A DNA stretch of 64,000 nucleotides, from IMG/VR virus record IMGVR_UViG_3300032677_000006; one strand, 5' to 3'. This document shows positions 5,073 through 52,833 of the stretch, in pieces. Numbering within the stretch: the stretch's first letter is position 1; the number at the start of each line of letters is the position of its first letter. The notes under the pieces were generated by a model. That model was not told the DNA's origin, did not search any database, and worked only from the letters and a program-made list of their open reading frames with translations. The translations under genes were made by a program, and so were the position numbers. Origin of the DNA: a virus.

Positions 5073-8000
5073 TCAGTCCGGGCTGATTGCCTCCGCTGTC
5101 ACCGCCGACGCGGACACCACGTTGTACGCCAGACCATAGTCCGGTGCCACGTAGCTGTACTGCGTGCCGTTCACGACCACCGAGTCCGACGTATTCTCCG
5201 CCGAGATCAACTGGCCCGCGCTGCTGCTGTAGCGACTCGGGCTGTGGCCAAAGCCGCCACTCAGCACGGTATACGCATTCCGGGTCGTGTCGGTGATGGC
5301 CGCCTGCATGGCCACGCCCGCGCTGTTCAGGGTGTGGTACTGTGTGTACAAAGTCGCGGGCACGCTGCCGCTGTAGCTGAACCAAGCGTCCATCTCGCCG
5401 TGCGCGCCGGTCGCGGACCTGCCGGTGTAAAAGTTGAACTGCACCCGCCCGCTCAGCAGCTGCCCGGCATACGCCGTCACGTTCGGCGGCATCGGCAGCC
5501 CAAAGTCGCCCGTGCCGGACATGGCCACCAGCAGGTATTCCGTGCCCTGGCTGACCACGGTCACCAGGCCGTCCGGATTTAGCAGCCCGGAGACTGGCTC
5601 GGTGGCGGGCAGGCTGTCGTAAAACGCGTAGGAAGCCTGCTCCGTATAGCCGCAAAATCCCAGGGCTTTCAGCGCGCTGGCAGAGGGCAGCCGGTAGATC
5701 ACCGAAGCATAGAGGCGCGGCAGCGTGATCTGCGGCGTCCAGCTTACGTCCACCGGCATGCCTCGGAACTGTCCAGTCATGCCGTTCTGGTCGGACAGCA
5801 CCAAGCTCACGGTATCGCTGGGAAACAAGGGCAAAACCTTGACCGTCGACACACCCAAGTTGTGGCTGATTTCGGTTCCGTTGTGGTCCACCACCAGCTC
5901 TTTGTAGACGCCCGGCAGTCCGACGTTTACGGCCATAGTGACCGTGCCGGTGGAGGTAAAAAGGTATGTCTCGTCCCCGTTGAAAACCGCCGTGGCCGAC
6001 CCAGCGGTCGCACCGACCAGGCCCTCGTCCAGCGCCGAGGCCGCCACGCCATACACCGGCAAGCCGACATCCAGGTGCGGGAAGCTGACTGAGACCGGCA
6101 CTCCGGTTTCCGCGTCGCGGTAGAGGTAGGTTGAACCCTGCGTCGTGCCGCTGTAGGCCGCGCCGTAACAATTCAGGCTGGGAGTCACGCTGCCTGCGCT
6201 GACCACCAGCTCGTAGCTGGACGGAAGCAAAGTGCCGGTGTAGCTGTAGTACCGATTGTTGTACTCCACCGCCGCGTGCGGGGACGAGCTGGGCGGATAA
6301 ATCACCAGCATCTGGGTGGGCGCAGGCTGGTACTCCAGGTCCGCTCCAGACTCGCTGGGATTGGGCACCGGGACCACCGGGCACTCCGTGTAGAGATACG
6401 GTGTTCCACATGGAACGCTGTTTGGGTACGCCACCAGCGCCGGACCGGTGCCGCTGTATTCGGAAAGGAACGACGACAGCCGGTAGCAGGAGTACGGCTG
6501 GGTGCCGTACGAGACGTAGGGCGCAGGAAAGCCCAGCGGCTGGATCAGCTGCACCGGCGCGCCCGCGCCATAGACCGGGGCGTAACAGTACAGCCCTTGC
6601 GGTCCGCACGCCGGGTCCTGGCAGCCTGTGACGACCACCACCGGCCCGCTCTGTCCGTCTACGAAGATAGGCACCGGCACCGGATTAGAATAGCAGGCTC
6701 CGTCAAAGGCGACGGTAGGATGGTAGGCCGTGGAGTACAAGGACGTGGCGCTGGTCACCGGCACCGGCACGGGCGACGGCAGCGCGGTTTGCACCGCCCC
6801 GGACTCGGACACGGCAAAGTCAATGACCACCCCCGTTTCGTCGAACTGGTAGTCGCTCAAGTTCACCGGGATCACCAGCGCCTGGGCAAACGTGGACGCG
6901 GTGTTCGCATACACCGTCACCGGCACCGTGCCGCTGAAGGTCGCGCTGGCGCTGGAGCCGGTTTTCCACACGGTGACAGTGACCACCGACCCGGCGTACA
7001 GCGCCCCGTCCACCAGGTAAACCACCAGACTGCCGTACAGACGCTTGACCCGGTTGCAGATAAGCGGGTAGCCGTCATAAGTCAGCAGCGAAAAATAGGC
7101 TGGCCGGATGCCTTCAATGCCTGCCACGGCCTTGGCGTATACATTCGGCTGGCCGTACGCCTCATAAATCGCGTAGTTGTTGCTGTCTGTGAAGAAAGTG
7201 TTCGTGTAATACGGCGTCGAGTTGGGGCTGCCTGCAACGTCCAGCGTCATCAGCGGAATGTTGGTGGTCAGCGGCGTCGAGTAGGAAATGATCGCATCGC
7301 CTGTGCCCAGCCGGTTTTTACCGTAGTTCACGTCCAGCTGCAAATCGGCGTTGGTGAACAGGGCCGCCAACCGGCGTGCCCGCAGCCCGGACCCGCCGGG
7401 ATAAGCGCTGTAGGGGCACCTGGTATACTGGTAAATGTTTGCCACTTGCCGGTAGCAGCTCAGGCGCACCCGAAAGTTAAACGCCAGCCAGCTGGCCGAC
7501 CCGGCGTCCGTGGCCCGGGGCAGCCAGGCGTCCACCGTGGACTGGACGCGGTAATCGGCGGGCGCGGGCACGGGCGGCATGCCGATGCCGTAATCGTAGC
7601 CGACATCCTCGCCTTGCAAGCCCGCCGGGAAGCCCAGCAGCGCCCAGTTGGCCGCCTTGGTCCGGAGCACCACTTCCGGCGGGATCGTGCCGTCCGCCAA
7701 GTTGACCACGGCGGCGGCATAGTGGGTGGTTCCCGGGAGCAAGTACGTGTCCTGGGTGTGCGAAATCAGCTGATAGGGGAAGTAGGTGGCCGTACCTGGA
7801 CCGCCGTTGAATTCGTCGCTGTAAACGTCACCCAGATAGACCAGCGAGGTGCTGGGGGCGGGCAGAGGAACGGCGGAGCGGTTCGTCACGGCTCCGGAGA
7901 CGGTCACGGCGCTGTCAAACGCCAGCACGGTGCCGTCAGAGCAAGTGGCCGTGCCCTGGAGGCGGTACAGCCCGCTTTCCATCGACTGGATGGAGACCCC

Positions 8001-8432
8001 GGGACCGTTGCCGGTCTGCACCTGGGTGTTGTTGAGCAGCAGCGTCCAGGAGAAGGTCCCTGCCGCCTGCCCGGAAGCGCTGGCGGCGACAATGGCCGCC
8101 TCGCCCGGGTCGCCCGGGTCGAAGCTGACCTTGCTCCAGGTCACGCCGACATAGGTGGAACCGACGGTCGAAGCGGCGTTGACGGTAAACACCGCGTTCT
8201 GGTAGCCGAACTCAACCGGCACTGTGACCGTGATCGTGTGCGGCAGCGCCTGTACGGGCGTGAAAACAATCGGGCTGCTGACGCCGGAAGCAAGCGTGGC
8301 GTTGTTGCACAGCACCAACCAGCGCTTCGGAACCACTTGGGCGTTGTTGACGAACGCCTTAAGCTCGTAGCGGTGCTGACAGACCAGGGTGGCAGGCAGG
8401 GGCCTGCTATTATAGCGCAGTTCAATGACCAC
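5073..8432 (-). CDS. Large (1119 aa) beta-rich virion structural protein (baseplate/fibre-like)
   Basis: T/S/G/V/Y-rich, low charge, Ig/PKD-like segments; GTAGTTA motif 4 nt before GTG. Confidence 0.65.
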   Translation of the reverse strand: MVIELRYNSRPLPATLVCQHRYELKAFVNNAQVVPKRWLVLCNNATLASGVSSPIVFTPVQALPHTITVTVPVEFGYQNAVFTVNAASTVGSTYVGVTWSKVSFDPGDPGEAAIVAASASGQAAGTFSWTLLLNNTQVQTGNGPGVSIQSMESGLYRLQGTATCSDGTVLAFDSAVTVSGAVTNRSAVPLPAPSTSLVYLGDVYSDEFNGGPGTATYFPYQLISHTQDTYLLPGTTHYAAAVVNLADGTIPPEVVLRTKAANWALLGFPAGLQGEDVGYDYGIGMPPVPAPADYRVQSTVDAWLPRATDAGSASWLAFNFRVRLSCYRQVANIYQYTRCPYSAYPGGSGLRARRLAALFTNADLQLDVNYGKNRLGTGDAIISYSTPLTTNIPLMTLDVAGSPNSTPYYTNTFFTDSNNYAIYEAYGQPNVYAKAVAGIEGIRPAYFSLLTYDGYPLICNRVKRLYGSLVVYLVDGALYAGSVVTVTVWKTGSSASATFSGTVPVTVYANTASTFAQALVIPVNLSDYQFDETGVVIDFAVSESGAVQTALPSPVPVPVTSATSLYSTAYHPTVAFDGACYSNPVPVPIFVDGQSGPVVVVTGCQDPACGPQGLYCYAPVYGAGAPVQLIQPLGFPAPYVSYGTQPYSCYRLSSFLSEYSGTGPALVAYPNSVPCGTPYLYTECPVVPVPNPSESGADLEYQPAPTQMLVIYPPSSSPHAAVEYNNRYYSYTGTLLPSSYELVVSAGSVTPSLNCYGAAYSGTTQGSTYLYRDAETGVPVSVSFPHLDVGLPVYGVAASALDEGLVGATAGSATAVFNGDETYLFTSTGTVTMAVNVGLPGVYKELVVDHNGTEISHNLGVSTVKVLPLFPSDTVSLVLSDQNGMTGQFRGMPVDVSWTPQITLPRLYASVIYRLPSASALKALGFCGYTEQASYAFYDSLPATEPVSGLLNPDGLVTVVSQGTEYLLVAMSGTGDFGLPMPPNVTAYAGQLLSGRVQFNFYTGRSATGAHGEMDAWFSYSGSVPATLYTQYHTLNSAGVAMQAAITDTTRNAYTVLSGGFGHSPSRYSSSAGQLISAENTSDSVVVNGTQYSYVAPDYGLAYNVVSASAVTAEAISPD
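6402..6417. promoter_or_regulatory. parS-like palindrome inside a CDS
   Basis: TGTTCCACATGGAACG, 14/16 identical to TGTTCCACGTGGAACA. Confidence 0.5.
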
Positions 8433-36067: not shown

Positions 36068-38014
36068 ATGGCTGACTTAAAACTCAAGCGCCTGAAAATG
36101 CGCAACTGGATGAAGTTCCGTGATGTGGATTTGGAGTTCCCCGACCAGGGCCTGATCCTGGTCCAGGGCCTCAACACCGCCTCCGGCGGTGCCCTGGCCT
36201 CGGTGGGATCGGGTAAGACCGCCGTGGGCGAAGCTTTGTGCCGCACCCTGCTGGGCATCACAGGCCGGTTCACCAGCGCCAAGCAGTATAGCCTGGACAA
36301 GCAGGGCGACCTGTACGTCCGTCTGGAGGCCGAACTGCTGGGCAAGCCGCTGCTGGTGGAAGCCGGGTACGCCTGCGACGAATTTCAAAGCTCCGGCGAG
36401 GCCCTGAGCTACACCCACGGCGGCACCCGGGTCGAGCGCGGGCGCATGCAGGAGACACGCGCCCAGCTGGCCAAGCTGTTGGGCGTGTCTCCGCAGCTGG
36501 CGGACTGGACGGCCTTCATCGACGGCGAGCGGCTCAAGTTCAATCGGCTGTCCCAGGCGGACAGCGTCAGCCTCGTCATGGCGGCGCTCCGCCAGCCAGA
36601 ATGGTCCAGCTACTTTGAAATCCTGAAGAAAAAGTCGGGCGAGTTCCAGGTTACCGCCGCCAAGGACAGCCAGGCCCACGCCACCGCCATCGAAAACCTA
36701 ACCGACGCCCAGCGCGACCTGGACGCGGCCAAGGACGCGTATCTGGCCGCCAAAGAAGAGCACCAGCGCAACCTGGACAACCACGAGGCCAAAATCAACG
36801 AAGTACGCCAGCGCAAAGTCAATCTGGAGAATCGCCTGAAGGAGATCAGCGCCAAAATGCAGGAGATCAAGACCCAGCTGAAACTCATGGAGGACGAGCG
36901 CGCCAAAAAGTCCCACGACATTGAAATCAACATCCACAAGGTAGAAGACGTCCTGACCGCCCTGGACGACGAAAAGGAAAAACTCCTTAAAACACGTGAC
37001 ACGCGCCAGGAGACCATGTCCACCACGCGCACCGCCAGGCAGAATTACCTGTCCTCGGCGGCCAACTGTCCGACCTGCAACCGGCCCCGTGGAAAACTGG
37101 ACCCGGAGCGCCAGCAGGAGCTGGAAGCTGCCTACCAGAAGGGTTGTAACGCCTTCAACGAGATCAACGAACAGCTCAGCCAGCTTAACGAGAAGATCAA
37201 GGCCAAGCAGCAGTCGCTGCGCGACCTGCGCAAGGAGTTCAGCGAAGCGTCGGCCAGCGACGAGGTCAAGCAGCTGTCGGACGACTACGAGGACCTCGTC
37301 GAAAAGCAAAACGCCAACGAAGACCGCGTCCAAGACCTGGACGTGGAACTGGCGGGCTTGAAAGCGCCGCCCTCGGACAGCAACGTGGTCAGAGCGGCCA
37401 CCACCTTGAAAGCCTCCAAGGCGTACCTGCAAAAGTGCCAGGACAAGCTGGACGCGGCGGCGGTGAGCGTGACCCAGAATGACTTCACCGCGAAGGTGAT
37501 CAAATACTGGTACACCGCTTTCTCCTCCTACGGCATTCCCAACCTGGTGCTGCGGGAAGCCATCGGACCGCTCAACCACGAGGCCCGGCGCGTGTCAGCG
37601 GCCATGACCGGCGGCACCATCGACATCCGCTTCAGCACGGTCCGGGAGCTGGCCAGCGGCCAGGAGAAGGCGCAGCTCCACGTGGAAGTAGACAACAAAC
37701 TGGGCGACAAGGAACTGGCAGGCAGTTCCAAAGGCGAGGGCGGCCTGACCAACTTCATCATCGCCGAAACGCTGTCCGAAGTCGGCCAGGTTTCGCGGCG
37801 GCTGGGATTCCGGTGGTATGACGAAATCCTGCCCCATCAGGACCCGAAGGTATGCCAGAGCATCTACAGCTACATGAAAGACGTGGCCCAGCGCCTGGGC
37901 ATCCTGGTGTTCCTGGTGGACCACAACCCGGTGGCCGCCAACTACGCCGACCACGTGCTGATCGTGGAGAAGCACAAGCGCGACCAGGTGGCCAGCACCA
38001 TCCGCTGGCGCTGA
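36068..38014 (+). CDS. Rad50/SbcC-like ATPase (T4 gp46-like)
   Basis: Walker A 'GSGKT', coiled coil with CPTC Zn hook, 'SKGE' signature, 'YDE', 'VDH'. Confidence 0.93.
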   Translation: MADLKLKRLKMRNWMKFRDVDLEFPDQGLILVQGLNTASGGALASVGSGKTAVGEALCRTLLGITGRFTSAKQYSLDKQGDLYVRLEAELLGKPLLVEAGYACDEFQSSGEALSYTHGGTRVERGRMQETRAQLAKLLGVSPQLADWTAFIDGERLKFNRLSQADSVSLVMAALRQPEWSSYFEILKKKSGEFQVTAAKDSQAHATAIENLTDAQRDLDAAKDAYLAAKEEHQRNLDNHEAKINEVRQRKVNLENRLKEISAKMQEIKTQLKLMEDERAKKSHDIEINIHKVEDVLTALDDEKEKLLKTRDTRQETMSTTRTARQNYLSSAANCPTCNRPRGKLDPERQQELEAAYQKGCNAFNEINEQLSQLNEKIKAKQQSLRDLRKEFSEASASDEVKQLSDDYEDLVEKQNANEDRVQDLDVELAGLKAPPSDSNVVRAATTLKASKAYLQKCQDKLDAAAVSVTQNDFTAKVIKYWYTAFSSYGIPNLVLREAIGPLNHEARRVSAAMTGGTIDIRFSTVRELASGQEKAQLHVEVDNKLGDKELAGSSKGEGGLTNFIIAETLSEVGQVSRRLGFRWYDEILPHQDPKVCQSIYSYMKDVAQRLGILVFLVDHNPVAANYADHVLIVEKHKRDQVASTIRWR

Positions 38015-42067: not shown

Positions 42068-42871
42068 ATGAACGGTCTGATGCTACATTGCGGTGCCCAC
42101 AACGTGACGCGCGAACAGGTCATGGAAGTCAAAACCCCCTCGCCCACCGATACCTGGTATCCCATCGCCCACGAGACCCTGATCTCCCGGGTCGAGCAGG
42201 CGCTGGGCAGCCTGAACATGCGCGTCATGGAGCAGGCGCACGCGCTCACCAAGAACGGCGACCGCTACTTCGGCCTCCTGCGCGTGGCCAACTGCCAGAA
42301 GACGGCGGACGACTACGCCTACGTCCTGGGCCTGCGCAACGCCCACGACAAAGCCTTCACCGCCTCCCTCGCCGTCGGGGCCAGCGTGTTCGTGTGCGAC
42401 AACCTCAGCTTCAGCGGCGAGATTACCATCGCCCGCAAGCACACCCGGTTCATCGAGCAGGACCTCCCGAAGCTCACCGGCAACGCCGTCGGGCTGCTCG
42501 CCCAGAAGTGGTCCGTCATGAACGACCGCATCGCCCAGTACAAGCAGACGATGCTGACCGACTCCACCGCCCACGACTTCATCATCCGCGCCACGGACAT
42601 TAACGCCTGCACGCTCCAGCAGATTCCGTCCATCCTCAAGGAATGGCGCACGCCCCGGCACCCGGAATTTGCCAAGGACAAGTCCGCCTGGCGTCTGCAC
42701 AACGCGTTCACGGAAGTTTACAAAGAGACCAGCCTGACCCTTCTGCCGCAACGGTCCATCCGTCTAAGCGGTTTAATGGACGCCCAGGTGGGCTTCGCCA
42801 CCACGACCGCAGCGGAGAAGGTTACGGCGGGCACGGTGGAAGTCGACGCAGCGGTCGTGGCCACGAACTAA
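42068..42871 (+). CDS. DUF932/DUF945-family protein
   Basis: 'GLRNAHDK...VGASVFVCDNLSFSG', 'RKHT', 'AWRLHNAFTE'. Confidence 0.8.
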   Translation: MNGLMLHCGAHNVTREQVMEVKTPSPTDTWYPIAHETLISRVEQALGSLNMRVMEQAHALTKNGDRYFGLLRVANCQKTADDYAYVLGLRNAHDKAFTASLAVGASVFVCDNLSFSGEITIARKHTRFIEQDLPKLTGNAVGLLAQKWSVMNDRIAQYKQTMLTDSTAHDFIIRATDINACTLQQIPSILKEWRTPRHPEFAKDKSAWRLHNAFTEVYKETSLTLLPQRSIRLSGLMDAQVGFATTTAAEKVTAGTVEVDAAVVATN

Positions 42872-42878
42872 AACAAAC

Positions 42879-42907
42879 AGGGCTGGCCTGCGAGGCCAGC
42901 CCTTTTT
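42879..42907 (+). terminator. Intrinsic terminator
   Basis: AGGGCTGGCCT-GCG-AGGCCAGCCCT-TTTT. Confidence 0.88.
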
Positions 42908-42920
42908 CGTCTACACTTAT

Positions 42921-43145
42921 ATGGCTGAAGCTAAAGCACCCGAACCGCCCCGCAAGCCGACCAAGATCATCCAGGTCAGCTACGGCATGTCCGTGAACAT
43001 CGGCAACTACGAATCCGTCAAGTTCGACCTGACGGCCCAGGTGACGCCGGACGAAGACTGGCGCGATGTCCTAGACTCGCTCCAACGCAAGTCGGCCCGC
43101 CTGAAGGAACACATCCAGGCCGAGCACGGCATCACCAACAGCTGA
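42921..43145 (+). CDS. Small phage protein ('NIGNYES' motif)
   Basis: 'VSYGMSVNIGNYESVKFD'. Confidence 0.7.
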   Translation: MAEAKAPEPPRKPTKIIQVSYGMSVNIGNYESVKFDLTAQVTPDEDWRDVLDSLQRKSARLKEHIQAEHGITNS

Positions 43146-43370
43146 CTAGGTGTTGTTGTAGCTGCGCGGATTACCGGCCACATTGGGGCCGTTGTTCTTT
43201 TTCTGGTTGCCCGCGCAGTTGAAACCGCACTCGATGTTCGAGTTGGTCACGGTGTTGTCCGTGGCCAGACCGCTGTTGGTCGTGGGCGCGGGAGTCGAGA
43301 TGCGGCCCGAGCCAGCGGCGCTGGGTCCGTTGTCGTAGCGAGCGTTTGGATCAAAATTTTTATTGGCCAT
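43146..43370 (-). CDS. Small Asn/Gly-rich protein
   Basis: GTAGTTA 7 nt upstream. Confidence 0.55.
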   Translation of the reverse strand: MANKNFDPNARYDNGPSAAGSGRISTPAPTTNSGLATDNTVTNSNIECGFNCAGNQKKNNGPNVAGNPRSYNNT

Positions 43371-43380
43371 AGCGTATTAA

Positions 43381-43638
43381 CTACATCGCCTGCTCCTGGC
43401 CTGGCCCGTTGACCCCGTAGTCAGGCACCCCAGGGGCCGGAATGATCTCCACCGACTGAATCGTCGGCACCGACGTGGGATTCGTCGCCCCGGCAGCGTT
43501 TGGCCCTACGGCGGGAATGATGGTGCCGTCCGGCGTGCGCCAGCTGAAGTTGTAAGGGTCGCGGGCGTATACCGTGACCTTGCTGATGGGCGGCGGGTTT
43601 CGCGGCTGCGCCAGCGCCCAGGGTGTGAATTCGGCCAT
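43381..43638 (-). CDS. Small Pro-rich protein
   Basis: CTAGTTA motif variant 3 nt upstream. Confidence 0.55.
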   Translation of the reverse strand: MAEFTPWALAQPRNPPPISKVTVYARDPYNFSWRTPDGTIIPAVGPNAAGATNPTSVPTIQSVEIIPAPGVPDYGVNGPGQEQAM

Positions 43639-43644
43639 GCCTAA

Positions 43645-44244
43645 CTAGCGCTCCAGCACCAGCACGACCGGGTACAGTGTCTTGTCCAGGGACCAGATGG
43701 CCTCGTCCGGCGACTGCGGGCTTACCGGAAGCCATTCGCCGGTGCGGCTGTCCACCAGGGAAATCTTCAGCCCGTGATCCGTCGCCGTGCGCACGAACGA
43801 CTTCCAGAGGCGCTTGCCGCCTTCCAGGTGCTCAAAATCGGAGACCACCCCGCCCGCATACTGGACGTAGCTGAAATACCAGCGCGTCGCCACGCCGCCC
43901 CGGGCGAAGCTCTCCCGGATGCTCAGCCGGTGCGCCTGCATGTAGCCCTTGATGTTGGACGGGCGCAGCTGAACCGTCATGACCGGAACGATGCCGGTCC
44001 TTGGCGGGTTCTCGGTGTCAGGCACGGAAAACACGTAGCCGAAGTTGCCCGCCGGGGAAAGGGCGTAGGCGTAGTCGGCATCCTGGGTCATCAGCTGGCA
44101 GGCCCAGTAGTTGTCCATCGACAGGGGCCGGAAGCCGGAATCTCGCTGGTAGGCGAAGGGACCTGGGTAATACTGGGGCGACTCCCGGAGCTGGCCCAGG
44201 GTGGGCAGGTCCAGGAGCTTCGTCACTAGCTGATCGGCACGCAT
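43645..44244 (-). CDS. GNAT-like protein
   Basis: 'FARGGVATRWY...VVSD...GGKRLWKSF' resembles GNAT motifs A/B. Confidence 0.5.
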   Translation of the reverse strand: MRADQLVTKLLDLPTLGQLRESPQYYPGPFAYQRDSGFRPLSMDNYWACQLMTQDADYAYALSPAGNFGYVFSVPDTENPPRTGIVPVMTVQLRPSNIKGYMQAHRLSIRESFARGGVATRWYFSYVQYAGGVVSDFEHLEGGKRLWKSFVRTATDHGLKISLVDSRTGEWLPVSPQSPDEAIWSLDKTLYPVVLVLER

Positions 44245-44250
44245 ACTAAA

Positions 44251-44279
44251 AATGTATACAATCGACAGGTCGATGTCAA
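44251..44279 (-). promoter_or_regulatory. Sigma70-type leaderless promoter with an inverted repeat in the spacer
   Basis: TTGACA-17-TACATT-6nt-ATG; ATCGAC-NN-GTCGAT at 44261-44274. Confidence 0.75.
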
Positions 44280-44295
44280 TTTAAGCTTTAACCCG

Positions 44296-44802
44296 TCAAA
44301 AACTGGGCAGGATGTCGAACTGCCACGTCTCGCCCGGCACCGGCTCCAGGGTCCTGATGCTGGCGTGGTCGCTGTCCTGGTACCTTTGGCTGCCGAACAC
44401 ATTTTCCCGGTTGGAGTAAAACTCAACGCGCACGACCCCTGCTCCCATCCACTGGCGGCAGCCGCACTGGAACGGCACCTGAATCTTGTGCCGTTCCGCC
44501 ACGCTGGCATCGTGGCAGCGGTAGAGCTGGTCGTCGGGCATGGCTTGCAGATCGCGGAGCGTGCGCAACGGCCCGGCCTCCAGGAGCGCATCAACCAGGG
44601 CCACCGGCTTGCCGCGTTTGAGCGCTTCTTCCAGCTTGGCGTTCGTAAATGGCCGGTGCAGCAGGAGGTCCAGCTCGTTGTTGAGCGCCTTCAGCTCGGC
44701 GGATACGTGCGCAGTGGGCTGCGCCAGGCCGTCCAGGCGGTCATACTCAGCGTCCAACTGCGCGATACGCGCTTTAACCACGGCAAGTCGTCTCTGTCTC
44801 AC
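44296..44802 (-). CDS. Hypothetical protein
   Basis: GTG 5 nt after GTAGTTA. Confidence 0.55.
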   Translation of the reverse strand: MRQRRLAVVKARIAQLDAEYDRLDGLAQPTAHVSAELKALNNELDLLLHRPFTNAKLEEALKRGKPVALVDALLEAGPLRTLRDLQAMPDDQLYRCHDASVAERHKIQVPFQCGCRQWMGAGVVRVEFYSNRENVFGSQRYQDSDHASIRTLEPVPGETWQFDILPSF

Positions 44803-44837
44803 GCCCCTAACTACGGACAAATTCAGTTCTAGCGGGC

Positions 44838-45080
44838 ATGATCACGAATCGACTCGTTTCCATTGACATCCCGGGCGCGCCCGACGTCACGACCAAAGAC
44901 GCGGAGTGCTGCGACAAAATGGTGGAGGGCGTCCACACCCTCAACCTGGCGTGCGAACTGGCCGCCGCCAACGGCACGCACATCACCATGTGGCCGATGC
45001 ACTACTGCCCCTGGTGCGGCAAATCGTTTACCGAATCGGCGAAGGAATTCCTGGCCAAGCAGCCGGTCAAAGGTACGTGA
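44838..45080 (+). CDS. Small Cys-rich (Zn-binding) protein
   Basis: 'ECCDKM...YCPWCGK'; GTTCTAG upstream. Confidence 0.65.
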   Translation: MITNRLVSIDIPGAPDVTTKDAECCDKMVEGVHTLNLACELAAANGTHITMWPMHYCPWCGKSFTESAKEFLAKQPVKGT

Positions 45081-45996
45081 ACTTTGCAGGCTGGCGGCTG
45101 CCGATCACGGTGCCGTGGAAATGGGACCTGATGTTGTCGGCCACGAACGCGTCAGTCGCGTAGTCCAGGTGCGTGATGGCCACGACATCCGGACGCGTCA
45201 GCCGCAGGCTGAGCTTGAAGTCGCTCTCCGACCACTCAAATACCCGGCGCACGCGCTTGGTCGTGGAGGCGATCTCCGGCTCCAGCTTCAGCTCAACCCA
45301 GGTCAGCTCCTTGCCGCCACAGGGGCCGCTGGGGCCGCCCGTGCGGATTGGCAGCGTCCGGTACACCGAGCAGATGGTCCAGTTGAAGCAGGACAAGCCG
45401 TTGCGCCCGATAATGGACAGCGGCAGCGTTGACCGGCTGGTCACGTACGGGTACACGCCAAAGTTGGTGTCCAGCAGCGCTCCCTGGCTGCCCTCGACGA
45501 TCCAGTCGAAACTGGACAGCTCCTCCACCAGGTCCAGCCACTCCGCCGACTTCACGACGGTTACGCCTGGGATTGGGTAGTAGCCCGCCACGGCATTGGG
45601 CTGCCTTAGCGTATACTTTTTGTACCGGGCGTACCCGCTGCCGGTACAGGTGCTGGAGATGCTCCGCCCCAAGCCCAGCTCTTGCTCCGCGACGCGGTCG
45701 TCAGGCAGGGTGATGGCCGCGTTCTCGTGGACGTAGACGCGAGCATTCTTTGGCAGCTGCGCCAGCTCGCGGGCCAGCTGGTCCAGGTCGATCACCGCGT
45801 CCGGCCCGATCAGCGTGGCGTTGGCCCGCATGGCGCAGGAGGGCAGGCAGTGGGTACACCAGGCTGAGTTGGTGTGGCCGGAGTTGGGGCCGGACTCGGC
45901 GAAGGCGACCAGGGCTTGGGTCTGCCGGGCGAAGTAATCGGCCACGCAGCCCTTGCCCTCGGAGCCGTAGAGACCGCCGCAAATCAATAGCTTCAT
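45067..45996 (-). CDS. purZ: PurZ/PurZ0-like adenylosuccinate-synthetase homologue (candidate dGMP-succinylating enzyme)
   Basis: P-loop GGLYGSEGKG (Ser in place of the PurA catalytic Asp), GPNSGHT, EGSQG, YPYVTSR, RTLPIRTGGPSGP, TTKRVRRV, THLD. Confidence 0.75.
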   Translation of the reverse strand: MKLLICGGLYGSEGKGCVADYFARQTQALVAFAESGPNSGHTNSAWCTHCLPSCAMRANATLIGPDAVIDLDQLARELAQLPKNARVYVHENAAITLPDDRVAEQELGLGRSISSTCTGSGYARYKKYTLRQPNAVAGYYPIPGVTVVKSAEWLDLVEELSSFDWIVEGSQGALLDTNFGVYPYVTSRSTLPLSIIGRNGLSCFNWTICSVYRTLPIRTGGPSGPCGGKELTWVELKLEPEIASTTKRVRRVFEWSESDFKLSLRLTRPDVVAITHLDYATDAFVADNIRSHFHGTVIGSRQPAKFTYL

Positions 45997-46003
45997 AGCT
46001 CTG

Positions 46004-48037
46004 CTAGTTGACCGGGCAAGCGGTTTTGACTTTCGCTCTTCCACCTTTAATCGTGCCGAACGGCCCTTGCGAGGCTTGGTGCAAATGCCTTATGCCAGCT
46101 ACGATAGACAGTAGCGCGCTGGGCTTTGTCAATTCATCCGAGTTTTTCATTTTGTTGGCCTTAAGGTAGGCGTAAATGTGCGTCATAGCCAAGCTCACGT
46201 GCCCGATTACCTGGCTCTCAAAAGCTCGTCGGTAGCTAGTCATTTCAGCGCCGTCATCCACACCGTCGGCTCTTAGCTTGAGTTCGCACATGTCCCACGC
46301 ATCTTTGACTAGAGGATGTGTCATGTCTACAATGCCTCTAGGCTCTTTTTGATCTGTATTCCATTCTACCGGAAATCCTCCTTCTACTGTACCCTTATTA
46401 ACGGTTATCAAGCCTCGACTATTTTGAAAATCCCTGCCGCGACCGCCCAAATGTCCCGGCAAGCGGTAACCGCCGCGATTACCACTGTCGGTGTCGCCGT
46501 CCGATTCATCCGATCTTTCGTAAGCAGGCTGTTTCTTTTCCGCGCGTCGAGTTTCTACGACAGTATGCGCCATGAACGGAAAATACTGCTTAAGGTGCTC
46601 CACGATGCTCGCATCCGTTTCAGGTCGATCTACGCTTAAACCTTCAAAGTAGGCGTCCACCGCTTTTGATATGAAGTCAGGCCGGTTTACCCTGTAGGCT
46701 GCCGCCCACTCAAGCTCCGGCAGCGGCGCGCCACCTTTAGTCTTACTTTGGTATAGTAGAGTGCGCCTGGACTGATCCGCAAAAACACAGATGTCACCGT
46801 CGTCCTTCGGCTCTAGGATTAAAGCCAAACGTCGCCGTACATCCATTAAGTTTATCCAGTCAAAAAGCGCAGTTTTTCCCTCTGACAGCATGCGCACGTT
46901 AAAAGTTTCGACTAAGTCTAAGTCGGGATGGCATTTCCAGATGCTAGCGATGAGCGGAAGTGAAGGATAATTACCGGCGGCATAGTGATTGTCACCACCA
47001 ACGGTGCCGCTGCTTTTTTCCAGCTCAGGCAGCAGCAAGGTGTCTACACTAACAGGAACTTCTGCGCCAGCTTTAAGCAGCGTCTGACCGCGCTTAGCCT
47101 CCTTGCCCTCTTTAGTAGCGGCGACAACGTAAGACTCCAGACACTTTTTCATGCCGATGACTGTCCTGCTGCTTATGCCTCCAGTGCCAGGTGCCGTTGG
47201 CCAGCTGCTCGGTTGATTCCAGTTTTTTCTTGCCTCTTCTGTTCCCACGGAAGCAACCGTAATTTTGAAGTTGTCGGGAATAGAATAAAAACGGGTGTTC
47301 AGGTAGCGGCAAAGACCGTACTTGGTGTCGTGTTCGTTCCTCTTAAAGTCACCAAGTATGGTGTGTTCTTTTCCACGCTGCCCGAGTAGCACGATAACCG
47401 TGCCGTGCCCAGCCTCTTTCACAAACTTAGGGACTACTTTAAGCCAGTTAATACCGTCTAATTCAGGCACGTATCCGCAATCGTTTAACAGTGTCAATGG
47501 CATCACTGTTGTAGCATCCTCGTTTCTTCCAAAACCGGAGACCCAGTCGCCGATAAAATCGTCGCTTTCTTGAGTTTCTCGCCCATCGAAATAATCAGAC
47601 AACAGCTCCCGCGCGCCGTAGTCCAAGGTACCGTCGTCTTTCTCTTCCCTCTGAAGCCACATCATATTGGTTTCTATCCGCCCGTTCAGCGTAACCACGG
47701 AAATGACCACAACACCGTAACCGTTCCACGGCAGTACGCTGCTCTTAAAGCCTACACCGTAGTTTCCTGTAATGGCTCCGATAGTGCGGCCTGAACCGCC
47801 AAATTTATTCAAAAAAGCTGGCATTTGCTGCGCACTCATGCCTGATCCGTTGTCGGCCACAAGCCGTCGGTACACTTGTTGGCTGCGTACTGCTTGCCAC
47901 TCCACGTCGAACCGCACATCAGTCGCACCAGCTTGGAGGGCGTTTACGGCGGCTTCTCTTGACCATTGATAAGCCTCTGAAGATTCGTAGGCTCGGTTAA
48001 TGTGAGCGTAGACGCCCACCATTTGCATATATTTCAT
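46004..48037 (-). CDS. GHKL (Hsp90/MORC-like) ATPase-domain protein
   Basis: 'REAAVNALQA', 'DNGSGMS', 'GNYGVGFKSS'; AAGGA SD before ATG 48037; lower GC. Confidence 0.75.
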   Translation of the reverse strand: MKYMQMVGVYAHINRAYESSEAYQWSREAAVNALQAGATDVRFDVEWQAVRSQQVYRRLVADNGSGMSAQQMPAFLNKFGGSGRTIGAITGNYGVGFKSSVLPWNGYGVVVISVVTLNGRIETNMMWLQREEKDDGTLDYGARELLSDYFDGRETQESDDFIGDWVSGFGRNEDATTVMPLTLLNDCGYVPELDGINWLKVVPKFVKEAGHGTVIVLLGQRGKEHTILGDFKRNEHDTKYGLCRYLNTRFYSIPDNFKITVASVGTEEARKNWNQPSSWPTAPGTGGISSRTVIGMKKCLESYVVAATKEGKEAKRGQTLLKAGAEVPVSVDTLLLPELEKSSGTVGGDNHYAAGNYPSLPLIASIWKCHPDLDLVETFNVRMLSEGKTALFDWINLMDVRRRLALILEPKDDGDICVFADQSRRTLLYQSKTKGGAPLPELEWAAAYRVNRPDFISKAVDAYFEGLSVDRPETDASIVEHLKQYFPFMAHTVVETRRAEKKQPAYERSDESDGDTDSGNRGGYRLPGHLGGRGRDFQNSRGLITVNKGTVEGGFPVEWNTDQKEPRGIVDMTHPLVKDAWDMCELKLRADGVDDGAEMTSYRRAFESQVIGHVSLAMTHIYAYLKANKMKNSDELTKPSALLSIVAGIRHLHQASQGPFGTIKGGRAKVKTACPVN

Positions 48038-48091
48038 GTTTTCCTTTCCCAGTCCCACCGGTTAATTCCAGCAAGTCCGGTTACACGCCGA

Positions 48092-48955
48092 CTATAGTTC
48101 AGCGCTGCCGTTAAGAACAAGAGAAAAACCTTTGTGTGCGCAAATTTCGCTCGCTTTTTTCCACTCAGCCACTCCCACTACTTCGCGGTGGGCGCGATGG
48201 GCTGTGTCCATCGAGTATCTCGTATCTATGAGCTTTTTGTCTACGCGCCAGTACAAGTCGCAGGCAACCCTATCTTTATTATCGTAGGTCAGTACCCACT
48301 TTCTCAGCGTGCGCAAGGCTTTTGCAAAATTCCTGTGCTCGCTTTCAGTCATGCTAACGCCGTAAAGTTTATTTTTGCCGTCCATAAGGTACGGCGGATC
48401 AATAAAGCAGGGACAACTGAATCGACGTACAAATTCAACAGCGTCCAGTTCCGTCACAACAGTGCGTCCGGACAGAAGTTCATGGTAGGCTACTAAAAGG
48501 GCGCTTAAAGCGCCTACGTTATAGCGACAACCGATTGGCCACTTACTTTTCTGCTCCAGGCCGCCTATCGGACGTGAGTCGTGTACGATGCCGTTCCACG
48601 AGGTTCGGTTCATGAATATCGCCTTAAAAGCCCGATTCAAGTCTGTTTTGGGTTCACTGCTGCGGGTGGACCGCCACAGGCTTAATGTTGGCACCACATC
48701 AATCAGTTTAATTAGCTGATTGACACCGGCAGAGGGTCCGCAGATTACGCGCCATAACCCGGCTATGAGCGGGTCTTTGTCGTTCAGCCTTAACTTGATT
48801 TTTGGAAAATGGCGCGCCACGTGCAACGCCACCGAACCACCACCGACGAAAGGTTCGCCGTACTCAGTTTCATTTTTAAGCATTCCGACCAGGTACGGCT
48901 GTAGATCGCCGAGCATTCGACTTTTTCCGCCAGGGTACCGTAATAGGCATTTCAT
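48092..48955 (-). CDS. DNA N6-adenine methyltransferase (Dam/D12 class)
   Basis: 'LRYPGGKSR', 'EPFVGGGSV', 'DPPY', 'WVLTYD'. Confidence 0.9.
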   Translation of the reverse strand: MKCLLRYPGGKSRMLGDLQPYLVGMLKNETEYGEPFVGGGSVALHVARHFPKIKLRLNDKDPLIAGLWRVICGPSAGVNQLIKLIDVVPTLSLWRSTRSSEPKTDLNRAFKAIFMNRTSWNGIVHDSRPIGGLEQKSKWPIGCRYNVGALSALLVAYHELLSGRTVVTELDAVEFVRRFSCPCFIDPPYLMDGKNKLYGVSMTESEHRNFAKALRTLRKWVLTYDNKDRVACDLYWRVDKKLIDTRYSMDTAHRAHREVVGVAEWKKASEICAHKGFSLVLNGSAEL

Positions 48956-49019
48956 GTCGCCAGTATAGAACACACACAGACGAGCCGTGGCCAGCTGAAA
49001 AATGACTAAACGTCAGCAT

Positions 49020-49035
49020 TGTTCCACGTGGAACA
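49020..49035. promoter_or_regulatory. parS: parS centromere-like site
   Basis: Perfect intergenic palindrome TGTTCCACGTGGAACA matching the bacterial chromosomal parS consensus. Confidence 0.8.
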
Positions 49036-49050
49036 CGTAATAAGTTTATC

Positions 49051-49272
49051 TTAGTAGTCTAACAGTTTGTCTACAATGTCGCTGGCGCTCTCCGCCTGGT
49101 GGCGCAGCTTGCCACCCCGCAGCTTAAACCCGGATTTGTTGACCCACTTCCCCACGGTGCCGGGAGCCACCTTGGCGGACTTGGCGATCTGCGCGTTCGA
49201 CTGGCCGCCCTGGCGGCAGCGGATGGCGGCAGCTTTTGAGCAGATGTCTCGAAAATTGAGTTTATGTCCCAC
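49051..49272 (-). CDS. Small HTH protein
   Basis: 'SNAQIAKSAKVAPGTVGKWV'; GTAACTA 4 nt upstream. Confidence 0.6.
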   Translation of the reverse strand: MGHKLNFRDICSKAAAIRCRQGGQSNAQIAKSAKVAPGTVGKWVNKSGFKLRGGKLRHQAESASDIVDKLLDY

Positions 49273-49315
49273 GGTATAGTTACACCACCAGCCTCTGACA
49301 ACGAAAAGTTTAAGG

Positions 49316-49359
49316 CTGGCGGCGGGCTACCCTTCCTCCTACAAGTAGCCCGCTGCCAG
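49316..49359. other. Intergenic hairpin
   Basis: CTGGCGGCGGGCTAC...GTAGCCCGCTGCCAG; no clear U-tract. Confidence 0.5.
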
Positions 49360-49364
49360 ATTGC

Positions 49365-49718
49365 TTAGGACGCAGGAGCCACGGGCGCGACCGTCGAGAT
49401 GGCTTGCGCCTGGGTCACCAGCGCCGCACTGTGCGCTTTCAGGGTAGTCAGCGCGGCCTGGTCGGCGGCGCTCAGGGTCCCGGGTGAGTTGTTGAAGGCG
49501 GTAATTTCAGCATCCAAGGCTGAAATGCCCGTGACCACGGCAGCCAGCGCCGTTTGAATTCCCGTCAGGTCGGCATCTTCGGTGGCCGCCCAGTCTGTGA
49601 TTGCACTCATTATTAGTTCTTTCGTTCTTTGCAGGTCCTGTACGGTTGCAGGCGTTCCGATGGACTTGCGGAAATCGGAAATCTGCTTTGACAGCACGTC
49701 AAATTGTTGATCGTTCAT
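49365..49718 (-). CDS. Ala-rich coiled-coil hypothetical protein
   Basis: Heptad pattern; AT-rich leader. Confidence 0.6.
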   Translation of the reverse strand: MNDQQFDVLSKQISDFRKSIGTPATVQDLQRTKELIMSAITDWAATEDADLTGIQTALAAVVTGISALDAEITAFNNSPGTLSAADQAALTTLKAHSAALVTQAQAISTVAPVAPAS

Positions 49719-49869
49719 AAATTAAAAGGAGTTGGGCGGTGTCGCTACAATGCGCACCAGGTCGAAAACAAAAGACAGAATTCACGAACCTGACCCTAGC
49801 CTGTTTTTAGCTAAGTGCCTATCAGGTGTTTACCTACCGGCAGAAACTGAGAAGTGGACCGATTTGTGC

Positions 49870-50484
49870 TCAGTCAAGCTGGACCTGGCGCTCCTGGGCC
49901 AGCCTGACCTGGTCGGCGGCGAAAGCGTCCTTCAGCCCCTGGTCCGCCTGGGCCATCATGGCGATGACGCCCAACACGTTCCTGTAGACGTACTGCGCGG
50001 GCTTGCCACCGTCGTCTTCCGCTTCCAGCGGAATGTAGACAGGATTGGCCGTGCCGCTCAGTGTGGACGCGTCCACCATCAGCACGTACTTGCCGCCGCC
50101 CAGGGCCTCCTTGAGCGTGGTGACCTGGGCCGTGACCCCAAACATCTCGTGGCCGGTGATGTCCTTGCCCAGGGACTTTTTCTTGGCGTGCGGGTCGTAG
50201 CCTTCGTAGGAGGTGACGTAAGCGATGTTTGACGGCTGACGCAGGGAGACGTTGACGGAGAAATCTCCCTTCAGCCAGCCGAAGTGCGTGGTCGAGGCCC
50301 CGATGACGCTCTCAAAGCCCTGCTCCTTCATGAACTGGTTCACGGCCATCAGGCCGATGCGCCAGGCGGCGTGCCGCTGGCCCAGGGAAAGCTTCTTGGG
50401 CGGCCCTGGCTTGACGACGGAGGTTTCGCCGGTCGGGCTGACGGCGAACACCCGTTCGATCTTGGCTGGCAGCAAATTGCTCAC
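49870..50484 (-). CDS. Hypothetical protein
   Basis: Strong codon bias; start uncertain (GTG 50484 or TTG 50499). Confidence 0.6.
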   Translation of the reverse strand: MSNLLPAKIERVFAVSPTGETSVVKPGPPKKLSLGQRHAAWRIGLMAVNQFMKEQGFESVIGASTTHFGWLKGDFSVNVSLRQPSNIAYVTSYEGYDPHAKKKSLGKDITGHEMFGVTAQVTTLKEALGGGKYVLMVDASTLSGTANPVYIPLEAEDDGGKPAQYVYRNVLGVIAMMAQADQGLKDAFAADQVRLAQERQVQLD

Positions 50485-50500
50485 AGCCTGGAAGAACAAA

Positions 50501-51280
50501 TTACGCGCGCCGAGAAGCCCACCAGAGCTTGACGGCGGCGCTGCGGGCGGCGCGGTGCTCGGGCGTCTGCGGGCGGCCTAGTTTTACGGCTGACTGCTTT
50601 CGCCGTGTGGCGGCTGAGACCTTGTGACCGATCTGGCTAGTGCCGTCACGCTTGGGCATGTGGGCGCTGGCCTCCTCGAACCAACCCTCCCGCTTGGCAA
50701 CACGGTAAGACCCCTGAGAGCCGTCGATCCAGGCTTGTCTGGTAGTGAACTTCCGAGCTTCTGCCACGATCAGCTCTTTGGTCCACTTGCGACCACGCAC
50801 AGTGCCAACAGAGCCTCCGCTATTCCGATTCAACATGGTCCAGCCTTCGTTCTTGTACTGCGCGATGGCCAGCTTCTCCGCCTCCGGAGCTTGCTCCCGG
50901 GTCAAGCTCGTGGCCAGAACCTTGCGCGTGTAGGTGCCACAGACATCAGCGTGCTCCGCTACCGGGCCACTGACCTTGTGCGCGTACTGCCTGGCTCGTG
51001 GCAAGAAAGTCAACCCGACGTACGCGTGCTTGTCGGCAAATTCGTACACGTAGATTTCGTAGTCAGCCGCGAACGGGCTGGCCATAGGCGTCATGTGGGC
51101 GCAACACCGGTCAAGCAGGCCCCTTGAACTAGCCGCCTGGTAGTGGTTGTTGGCGTAGCGCTTCCAGTGCGAACGATGCGGATACTGCGCAGCAGATGCC
51201 ATCAGCTCTTCGTCTGTGTACTTCCAACGTACTTTGTACGCATGCTTTGGATTATTCTTAGATGTGTAGCTCATGTACAT
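50501..51280 (-). mobile_element. GIY-YIG homing endonuclease with NUMOD3-like C-terminus
   Basis: 'IYVYEF...AYVGLT', 'AEK..I', two 'KW/YT.E...AHM' repeats, 'GHKVSAATRRKQS'. Confidence 0.82.
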
Positions 51281-51310
51281 ACACTAATGTATCATGCAGT
51301 CAAACGCAAC

Positions 51311-51341
51311 AAATAAAAAACCCACGGTTTCCCGTGGGTTT
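51311..51341 (-). terminator. Intrinsic terminator after the capsid gene
   Basis: AAACCCACGG-GAAA-CCGTGGGTTT-TTTATTT. Confidence 0.88.
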
Positions 51342-51363
51342 GTGAAGACTTAAGCGGCTAGGC

Positions 51364-52833
51364 TTAACCGATAGTCTGGCCAAAAGCGCTTGGACTATTC
51401 TGCACGAGGCCGCGTGCAAACATCTTCGAGTTGATCATTTTGCGCGCGAAGCTCGTGGCAAAACCCCGTTGATGGATGAAGTCAGGCAGCACCACGTCAG
51501 GGGTGGTGTACAGCTTCTGGTACTCGGCCAACACGTAGCCGGTCGTGAGGAACTGATCGCCCTTGTGGCCGACCAGGAACTCGTTCACCGGATAGTGGGG
51601 ATCGGCGAACACTTTCTTGTTGCCGATGTCGCCCAGGTACGTGATGCCCTGCATCTGGACCCGGTTGTTCTTCGGCACGAACTGCGGCAGCGTGGCCACC
51701 ACGGTAGCGGCTTGGAGGCCCAAGAGCATCCAGTTACCGGCGACCATGTTCGTGGAACCGAAGATGAAGTTCGAGGCAGTCTCGAACGCGTCGATGATGG
51801 AGAACTTGTGCGTCTGGTAATTGACGTTCGCCGGAGCGATAGCGTCCCAGACCACGAACCCGGCATCCGCCTTGGCCCGCAAGTCAAAGATGACCTGGCG
51901 GTGCTTCTGGTATTGCAGGGCGTTGGTCAACGCGTTGAGCAGGACGCTCTCCGCCTTGATGTTGTACATGGCCTGGAGGTTCTGGTCGGCTTCCTCGGAC
52001 CAGAGCGTCTTCAGCTTCATCACCTTGGCGGTGACGGGGGTGCTGGAGAGCTTCATCTCGTAGTCCTGGATCGCCAGGTTGCCTTCCGAGTTGAACGCGT
52101 AGCTCACAGTGTAGCTGGCAGCCGTTTCCGCGCTGACGGTGATCGTACCCGCGCCGGAACCTTGATAGGTCACCACGCCGATATACGCGCCCGTGGCCAC
52201 GTTGACGATCTGGCCGTTGCCGTCGTCCGCGAACTGGGTGCCGTCACCGAAGGAACCGGAAATCGTCCCGGTGCGGATCGGAGTCCATTCCAGCACGAAC
52301 ACGCCGGAACCATTCGTGGTGCCGGTTTCGTCCTGGACGACTTCATCAGCGTCATCGTCGCGGTCCACCGCGCCTTGCAGCGCGCGCCAGACGGGTGCGC
52401 CTGCCGGGGTGCGGCCTTTGCGCCGACCGGTGACGATGTCCATGTACACGATCTGGCTGACCGGGCCAGCCATGGGCTGGAGGGCCACCAGTTGATCAAT
52501 CACGTCGTTTTCCGACATGTTGGCGATGATGGGGAAAATCCACTTGTCGAACGTCCCGAGGGAGGTCGTACGAGTGACTTCGTCCAGACGGCCAAAACGG
52601 CTGCGGCAGTTTTCGAGCATGATCGCCGCCAGCGGTTTCTTGTGCTCCGGCATGTGGTCGACGAATTCCTTCCAGCCTTTGGCTTCCCAAAGACCTCGGG
52701 GATTTTTGTCGCGGCTGACCCCGACCGGCGTTTCCGCCAGGCGGTAGCCCCACTCAAGGACATCCATGAAGCGGGAAATGTGCCCGCCATCAGATGCCAA
52801 TACCGGTCTTCCACTTTCAGTTAGAATAACCAT
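51364..52833 (-). CDS. Major capsid protein (T4 gp23-like)
   Basis: 'AIMLEN', 'LQPMAGPVSQIVY', 'VTAK..KLKTLWSEEADQNLQAMYNIKAE', 'GYVLAEY'. Confidence 0.93.
   Translation of the reverse strand: MVILTESGRPVLASDGGHISRFMDVLEWGYRLAETPVGVSRDKNPRGLWEAKGWKEFVDHMPEHKKPLAAIMLENCRSRFGRLDEVTRTTSLGTFDKWIFPIIANMSENDVIDQLVALQPMAGPVSQIVYMDIVTGRRKGRTPAGAPVWRALQGAVDRDDDADEVVQDETGTTNGSGVFVLEWTPIRTGTISGSFGDGTQFADDGNGQIVNVATGAYIGVVTYQGSGAGTITVSAETAASYTVSYAFNSEGNLAIQDYEMKLSSTPVTAKVMKLKTLWSEEADQNLQAMYNIKAESVLLNALTNALQYQKHRQVIFDLRAKADAGFVVWDAIAPANVNYQTHKFSIIDAFETASNFIFGSTNMVAGNWMLLGLQAATVVATLPQFVPKNNRVQMQGITYLGDIGNKKVFADPHYPVNEFLVGHKGDQFLTTGYVLAEYQKLYTTPDVVLPDFIHQRGFATSFARKMINSKMFARGLVQNSPSAFGQTIG

Follow-up and report, generated by a model that had tools for sequence, protein, structure and literature searches.

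Why would a T4-like phage of lake water carry a perfect copy of a bacterial centromere, and what might it gain from it? The question is raised by a palindrome in a 64,000-nucleotide stretch of IMG/VR record IMGVR_UViG_3300032677_000006, hereafter called the window. The sequence, TGTTCCACGTGGAACA, occupies positions 49020-49035 (no strand assigned) inside an intergenic spacer of 77 nt. This 16-bp inverted repeat agrees at 16 of 16 positions with the chromosomal parS consensus tGTTNCACGTGNAACa, and it has the same 16 letters as parS2 and parS3 of P. aeruginosa, which are working chromosomal parS sites (PMC5098823). Both the perfect intergenic palindrome and its match to the conserved chromosomal parS, as announced in the original prediction, are thus borne out. 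In P. aeruginosa, ParB can bind, spread and form foci on a lone parS at any location, and sites with two mismatches are unbound in vivo (PMC5098823). The phage site is present as a single copy in the structural-gene region, and it is neither origin-proximal nor clustered nor located beside parAB, gidAB or dnaA.

The number of copies to be expected was estimated with Markov models of order 0-5, the maximal-order version being uninformative. A perfect copy is expected ~6e-5 times per window and, under the order-5 model, ~0.001 times per 1.06 Mb of the phage clade. Allowing up to three mismatches, the window contains three matches, versus 0.23 expected from shuffles. The 16-mer at 49020 is real and very unlikely to have arisen by chance. 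We also considered other signals that the spacer might contain. A search for intrinsic terminators (a G+C-rich stem and a subsequent T run) called none at 49020-49035, promoter scoring gave no sigma-70-like candidate adjoining the palindrome, and the RNA fold of the spacer is unremarkable (z = -1.1), with the palindrome lying outside any significant fold. None of these results favours a terminator, a promoter or a structured RNA in the spacer.

The window belongs to a T4-like myophage, as indicated by a gp20-type portal, a gp23-type capsid protein, sheath and baseplate proteins, a gp46/47-like nuclease and a PurZ-like enzyme. The phage also has a large glycosyltransferase island. The PurZ-like gene suggests that the phage DNA is possibly modified. 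Megablast searches against cultured phages gave no matches. Pfam scans of the ~70 ORFs of the window found no ParA, ParB or SMC, and HMMs of ParA and ParB built from bacterial origin loci gave no hits, whether in the window or in its five large relatives (G001-G005), from which the ParB N-terminal domain PF02195 is also absent. The predicted lack of parA and parB in the window was confirmed by both approaches, and the search for parAB in relatives that had been proposed as a check found none in the five large genomes. In contrast, the phage HU/IHF gene that the original prediction had invoked in favour of a nucleoid-like state was not found in the window by Pfam or motif searches.

Two degenerate copies accompany the perfect site. 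The near-copy announced at 6402 does exist (TGTTCCACATGGAACG, 6402-6417, no strand assigned; 14 of 16 positions), but with its two mismatches it belongs to a class that is unbound in vivo in P. aeruginosa (PMC5098823), and by this analogy ParB probably binds it weakly or not at all. It lies inside an ORF coding for a structural protein of 1119 residues (5073-8432, minus strand), where it reads GTT CCA TGT GGA ACA on the coding strand (peptide VPCGT). Nowhere else in the gene do five A/T-ending codons follow one another, and the joint probability of these codons given the peptide is 1.1e-5. VPCGT is not conserved in the orthologues of the 1119-residue protein in the two relatives G002 and G004. 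The codon pattern is compatible with selection acting on the DNA itself, or else with a recent patch. The third match, with three mismatches (13/16), is no more than expected by chance; it is found at 37908 within the Rad50/gp46-like gene.

The immediate surroundings of the perfect site are composite. On one side of it, a gene on the minus strand (48092-48973) codes for a D12-class N6-adenine DNA methyltransferase (Pfam PF02086; PADLOC PD-Lambda-5_B, E 1.9e-45), whose probable ATG near 48955 is ~65 nt away from parS. It is followed on the same strand by a gene coding for a GHKL-type ATPase of 684 residues (46004-48058), recognized by a sub-threshold match to Pfam HATPase_c_3 (22.8 bits; cut-off 25). 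On the other side is a small, basic ORF of 73 residues (49051-49272, minus strand), the stop codon of which is 16 nt from parS. The GC3 values of the methylase and ATPase genes are 0.55 and 0.54, versus ~0.8 for the other genes of the window, including the PurZ-like gene and the 73-residue ORF (0.77). Thus, the two genes form an imported island, with the methylase gene first and the ATPase gene second, and parS is located exactly at the upstream edge of this island, next to a native ORF. No direct repeats were found flanking the island.

Single-sequence scans of viral contigs gave no matches for either island protein, and scans of metagenomes and genomes with a profile of the methylase yielded a single close relative, in locus L040 (67% identity). 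Of the 5.8 billion proteins searched, just 20 are homologues of the GHKL ATPase at E<=1e-10, which makes it a very rare family. Three of these 20 and homologues of the methylase are on contigs of equal size (3,297, 25,223 and 209,257 nt), which suggests that the two genes form a linked module carried by phage-sized contigs. The module (46004-48973), which reads into the PurZ-like gene, may be a phage-borne system for exclusion, DNA marking or a restriction-like activity. No palindrome precedes the methylase gene in L040, the nearest homologue for which upstream DNA is available, and none follows the homologue of the 73-residue ORF (54% identity) in locus L010.

The island is part of a larger variable region. 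Taking the gp23-type major capsid gene (51364-52833, minus strand; Pfam PF07068) as a synteny anchor, we found that the region downstream of it, 42871-51364, is hypervariable among 35 related IMG/VR loci (L001-L035). This cargo region ranges from ~1.5 kb in L010 to ~8.5 kb in the window, and the relatives share almost no genes there. The gene directly after the capsid gene (50501-51280) codes for a protein of 259 residues found at 45-60% identity in many relatives; it has weak matches to the homing-endonuclease family phrog_314 and also to phrog_20046.

The relatives do not share the site. There is no perfect parS in ~1.5 Mb of related phage contigs and no site at the homologous place. Both this absence and the position at the edge of a foreign island count against the original prediction, which had named them as observations that would refute it. 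The sequence comparison indicates that the lake phage acquired its parS recently, at the edge of the imported island, and that the site is not ancestral to the clade. Near-copies are nevertheless more frequent in these phages than expected. Copies with a single mismatch are found in G001 (TGTTCCCCGTGGAACA), in G002 (TGTTCCATGTGGAACA, within the variable region that also contains the site of the window, 1.9 kb downstream of the capsid gene) and in G011 (also TGTTCCATGTGGAACA), and copies with two mismatches in G001, G004 and G006. The order-5 Markov model predicts 0.033 copies with up to one mismatch and 0.58 with up to two in 1.06 Mb. The three copies with up to one mismatch in the relatives compare with ~0.045 expected in ~1.48 Mb, a Poisson probability of ~1.5e-5 that leaves out the window's own site. 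Similarly, the count for parS in the phage clade is six, versus 0.24 on average and at most three for 331 control palindromes with shuffled halves. The near-copies of the clade have central changes (CATG, CCCG) and non-homologous contexts, and several of them are intragenic. Two sites, G004:215273 (L036) and G001:45784 (L037), share a longer motif, tAGAAC-T(T/G)TTCC(A/C)CGTGGAAC(T/A)-TTTTT, ~20 kb upstream of the capsid gene and in opposite orientations in the two relatives. This motif may represent a phage-specific signal with a mere resemblance to parS, or else a weak terminator.

We then asked how the same 16-mer is distributed in bacteria and in viral contigs generally. With one genome per species, the exact sequence is present in at least 120 bacterial stretches from many phyla, flanked by the classical origin set gidA, gidB, parA, parB, dnaA, dnaN, recF and gyrB, of which the first four were confirmed by Pfam and the others were named from cluster size alone. 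In IMG/VR, it is present in at least 120 viral contigs, versus three and 13 for two composition-matched control palindromes, an excess of at least 9- to 40-fold. The 120 listed viral loci total 1.0 Mb, with GC contents from 23 to 71%. They contain no ParA, no full-length, HTH-bearing ParB and no host origin genes, and the capsid and terminase genes found beside viral sites indicate that they are not mis-binned bacterial origins. Four of the 120 (L406, L411, L447 and L505) contain short ORFs with a weak ParB_N match and no ParB HTH domain; that of L406 (4423-4947) begins 12 nt past parS.

Viral and bacterial sites have the same bias in their flanks, with A in about half of the sites at positions -2 and -1 and T in about half at +1 and +2, although the flanks lay outside the pattern used to search for the 16-mer. 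Among the matches listed, 47% of the viral sites are located outside any ORF of at least 100 residues, versus a background of 21%. In phages of the HTVC023P type, a perfect parS follows the capsid gene at a distance of 29-60 nt, right behind its terminator, and it has been kept across capsid identities of 54-98% with a rearranged spacer. Loci of this type with a perfect site are L422, L425, L480, L500, L442, L453, L506 and L507 of IMG/VR. Four cultured relatives, including Pag-Yong1, DSL-LC04 and CRP-901, are devoid of the perfect site. Pelagibacter phage HTVC023P has only a variant with one mismatch, TGTTACACATGTAACA, ~2.4 kb downstream of its capsid gene. In a second viral lineage, a perfect site inside a gene is kept at protein identities of 71-100%. 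Retention of the position in two lineages argues that viral parS sites are usually under constraint. Host-type parS sites are thus enriched and constrained in viruses beyond chance.

As to the host, the phage locus was found in many public lake-water runs, many of them possibly from the source sample series, and the four runs examined contain an identical strain, with zero variants at the locus. One contig is the sole hint to a host: it is 2.8 kb long, has low coverage and a capsid gene 91% identical to that of the phage, and was assigned to a metagenome-assembled genome (MAG) of Candidatus Korobacteraceae (Acidobacteriota). Across the 301 genomes searched in the candidate host order, that MAG is the sole carrier of the capsid gene, and it contains no parS itself. 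With up to one mismatch, parS is present in 37 of 41 Korobacteraceae genomes, including the unpublished G018 and G041, on which no other result depends, or in 35 of 39 without those two. One genome of this family, G017 (loci L375-L390), harbours 43 copies at up to one mismatch, of which nearly all are perfect. Six of them form a cluster that looks like an origin-type array. Most of the others are paired, 34-35 bp apart, within a conserved dispersed repeat present on many contigs, with the layout site - ttaggaaaatgcgcggag - site - tcccaaaatgggaa...gttgattc...ggcaagttgca. This repeat looks like a MITE/REP-like element that scatters centromere sites over the chromosome. In five further Korobacteraceae genomes, parS is present in 12-20 copies.

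What is the site, then? It might be a neutral passenger that came with the methylase-ATPase island or arose at its recombination joint, or was picked up from host DNA rich in parS repeats. It would then have no role for the phage and would be expected to decay, as the copies of the relatives with one or two mismatches may have done. A junction between native DNA and an island of such distinct GC3, in a hypervariable region, is where parS could be baggage; the lack of a perfect copy in the relatives and the decayed look of their copies, e.g. CpG to TpG, are in keeping with this, and the paired perfect sites in the dispersed repeat of G017 show that parS can travel on mobile DNA. However, the flanks of the site in the window are unlike that repeat, none of the 120 listed viral sites has host origin genes next to it, and the methylase homologue of L040 is not preceded by the palindrome. 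In addition, the viral enrichment, the flank signature and the conservation of position imply that such sites are usually selected. We consider it rather unlikely that the site is a mere passenger, but its location at the island edge, its absence in relatives and the possible modification of the phage DNA keep this explanation alive.

Two further explanations are minor. The palindrome could be a local operator, at which a regulator of the phage or the island, or host ParB acting purely as a repressor, controls the methylase-ATPase operon, possibly together with the PurZ-like gene, with no role in DNA positioning. Its location 47-65 nt upstream of the methylase start and just after a small basic ORF would suit an operator, and there is a precedent in P. 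aeruginosa, where ParB at parS3 and parS4 is described as potentiating the repression of adjacent promoters (bioRxiv 10.1101/151340). Nevertheless, this idea gains no support from the homologues in L010 and L040, neither of which has the palindrome, with one comparison per gene; moreover, neither island protein has an HTH domain, no sigma-70-like promoter was scored close by, and an unrelated operator would hardly be expected to match a 16-bp parS exactly. We regard a purely local operator as improbable. Slightly less credible still is a chance origin, with parS spelled by a random palindrome that was noticed after the fact. Very many windows have been inspected, so that a rare 16-mer will turn up somewhere, and the control palindromes also occur, in 3-13 viral contigs. 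The low expectation per window, the excess of viral parS over these same controls and the independent enrichment of near-copies in the relatives argue against such an accident.

Our preferred interpretation, to which we assign a probability of roughly 45%, is that the palindrome is a working ParB loading site borrowed from the host, by analogy with known parS systems. A perfect host-type site in a phage without a ParB gene suggests that it probably borrows the ParB of its host, and host ParB is expected to load at 49020-49035 because the phage clade has neither ParB nor ParA. In infected cells, the ParB-CTP clamp of the host would load at this site and build a partition-type complex on the phage DNA. 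By analogy with phi29, the likely benefit is that the phage genome would then ride on the segregation machinery of the host, and segregation together with the host could allow it to persist and be inherited in slow-growing, non-lysing cells, in a carrier state. Once multiplied, the phage DNA might also titrate ParB off the host origin, and loading of SMC may be a further role of the phage parS.

We infer both the binding of ParB to the site of the lake phage and the benefit to the phage, and the evidence for this phage itself is no more than suggestive. The borrowing proposed in the original prediction is favoured by the identity with parS, the absence of ParB from the clade and the enrichment in viruses, and disfavoured by the absence of the site in relatives and its position at the island edge. 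The phage site has A and T on its left and C and G on its right, the right flank (CG) departing from the AA-site-TT preference of bacterial and viral sites. Lastly, the PurZ-like gene and the glycosyltransferase island raise the chance that the phage DNA carries modifications that might change ParB binding.

A broader proposal is that orphan host-type parS sites represent a general, selected phage strategy, by no means confined to spore-forming hosts. In many lineages, including that of the lake phage, phages that look lytic would plug a single perfect site into the ParB-ParA-SMC system of their hosts. Their genomes would thereby be passed on in cells that do not lyse, or ParB would be drawn off the host origin, and such sites would be quickly gained and lost within variable regions. 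We put this forward tentatively, as somewhat less probable than borrowing by the lake phage. If host ParB does load on such genomes, many phages considered as strictly lytic could persist and be inherited in slow-growing cells; alternatively, they could disturb the segregation of the host chromosome, well beyond the case of phi29 in sporulating Bacillus.

How does the lake phage compare with known systems? At the level of the site, it resembles the parS1-4 system of P. aeruginosa, which operates with ParB-CTP, ParA and SMC: the 16 bp are identical, and one site nucleates ParB there (PMC5098823). Unlike a chromosomal parS, the phage site is on a viral replicon, away from an origin, a cluster of sites or parAB genes. 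As in P1 parABS, N15 sop, mycobacteriophage parABS and the KorB-OB system of RK2, a palindrome acts in cis on a mobile replicon through a reader of the ParB family, which in our case is predicted. However, those replicons have their own ParB, usually ParA and site sequences of their own, whereas the clade of the lake phage has neither protein and the lake phage carries a host-type sequence.

The closest parallel, missed in the survey of known systems that accompanied the original prediction, is the virulent Bacillus phage phi29. As summarised in PMC2731898, which refers to Meijer et al. 2005 for phi29 and Nf, phi29 has five host-type parS sites, and host Spo0J is implicated in the movement of its genome into the prespore. 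Borrowing of host ParB by a ParB-less phage through a host centromere sequence is thus already published, and in the literature searched we found orphan host-type parS sites in phages only for phi29 and Nf. Like these phages, the lake phage has no ParB of its own and carries a host-type ParB-binding sequence. In phi29 and Nf, the partition protein of the host acts on phage DNA, whereas for the lake phage this is predicted. The phi29 system, according to the same summary, involves five sites and is tied to sporulation, with trapping in the prespore and Spo0A boxes. In contrast, the lake phage is a T4-like phage of the ~200-kb class with one perfect and one degenerate site and, contrary to what would be expected for a phi29-type system, its site is not retained among relatives. 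On the basis of its sequence, the lake phage adds a T4-like case to the orphan parS sites of the phi29 type.
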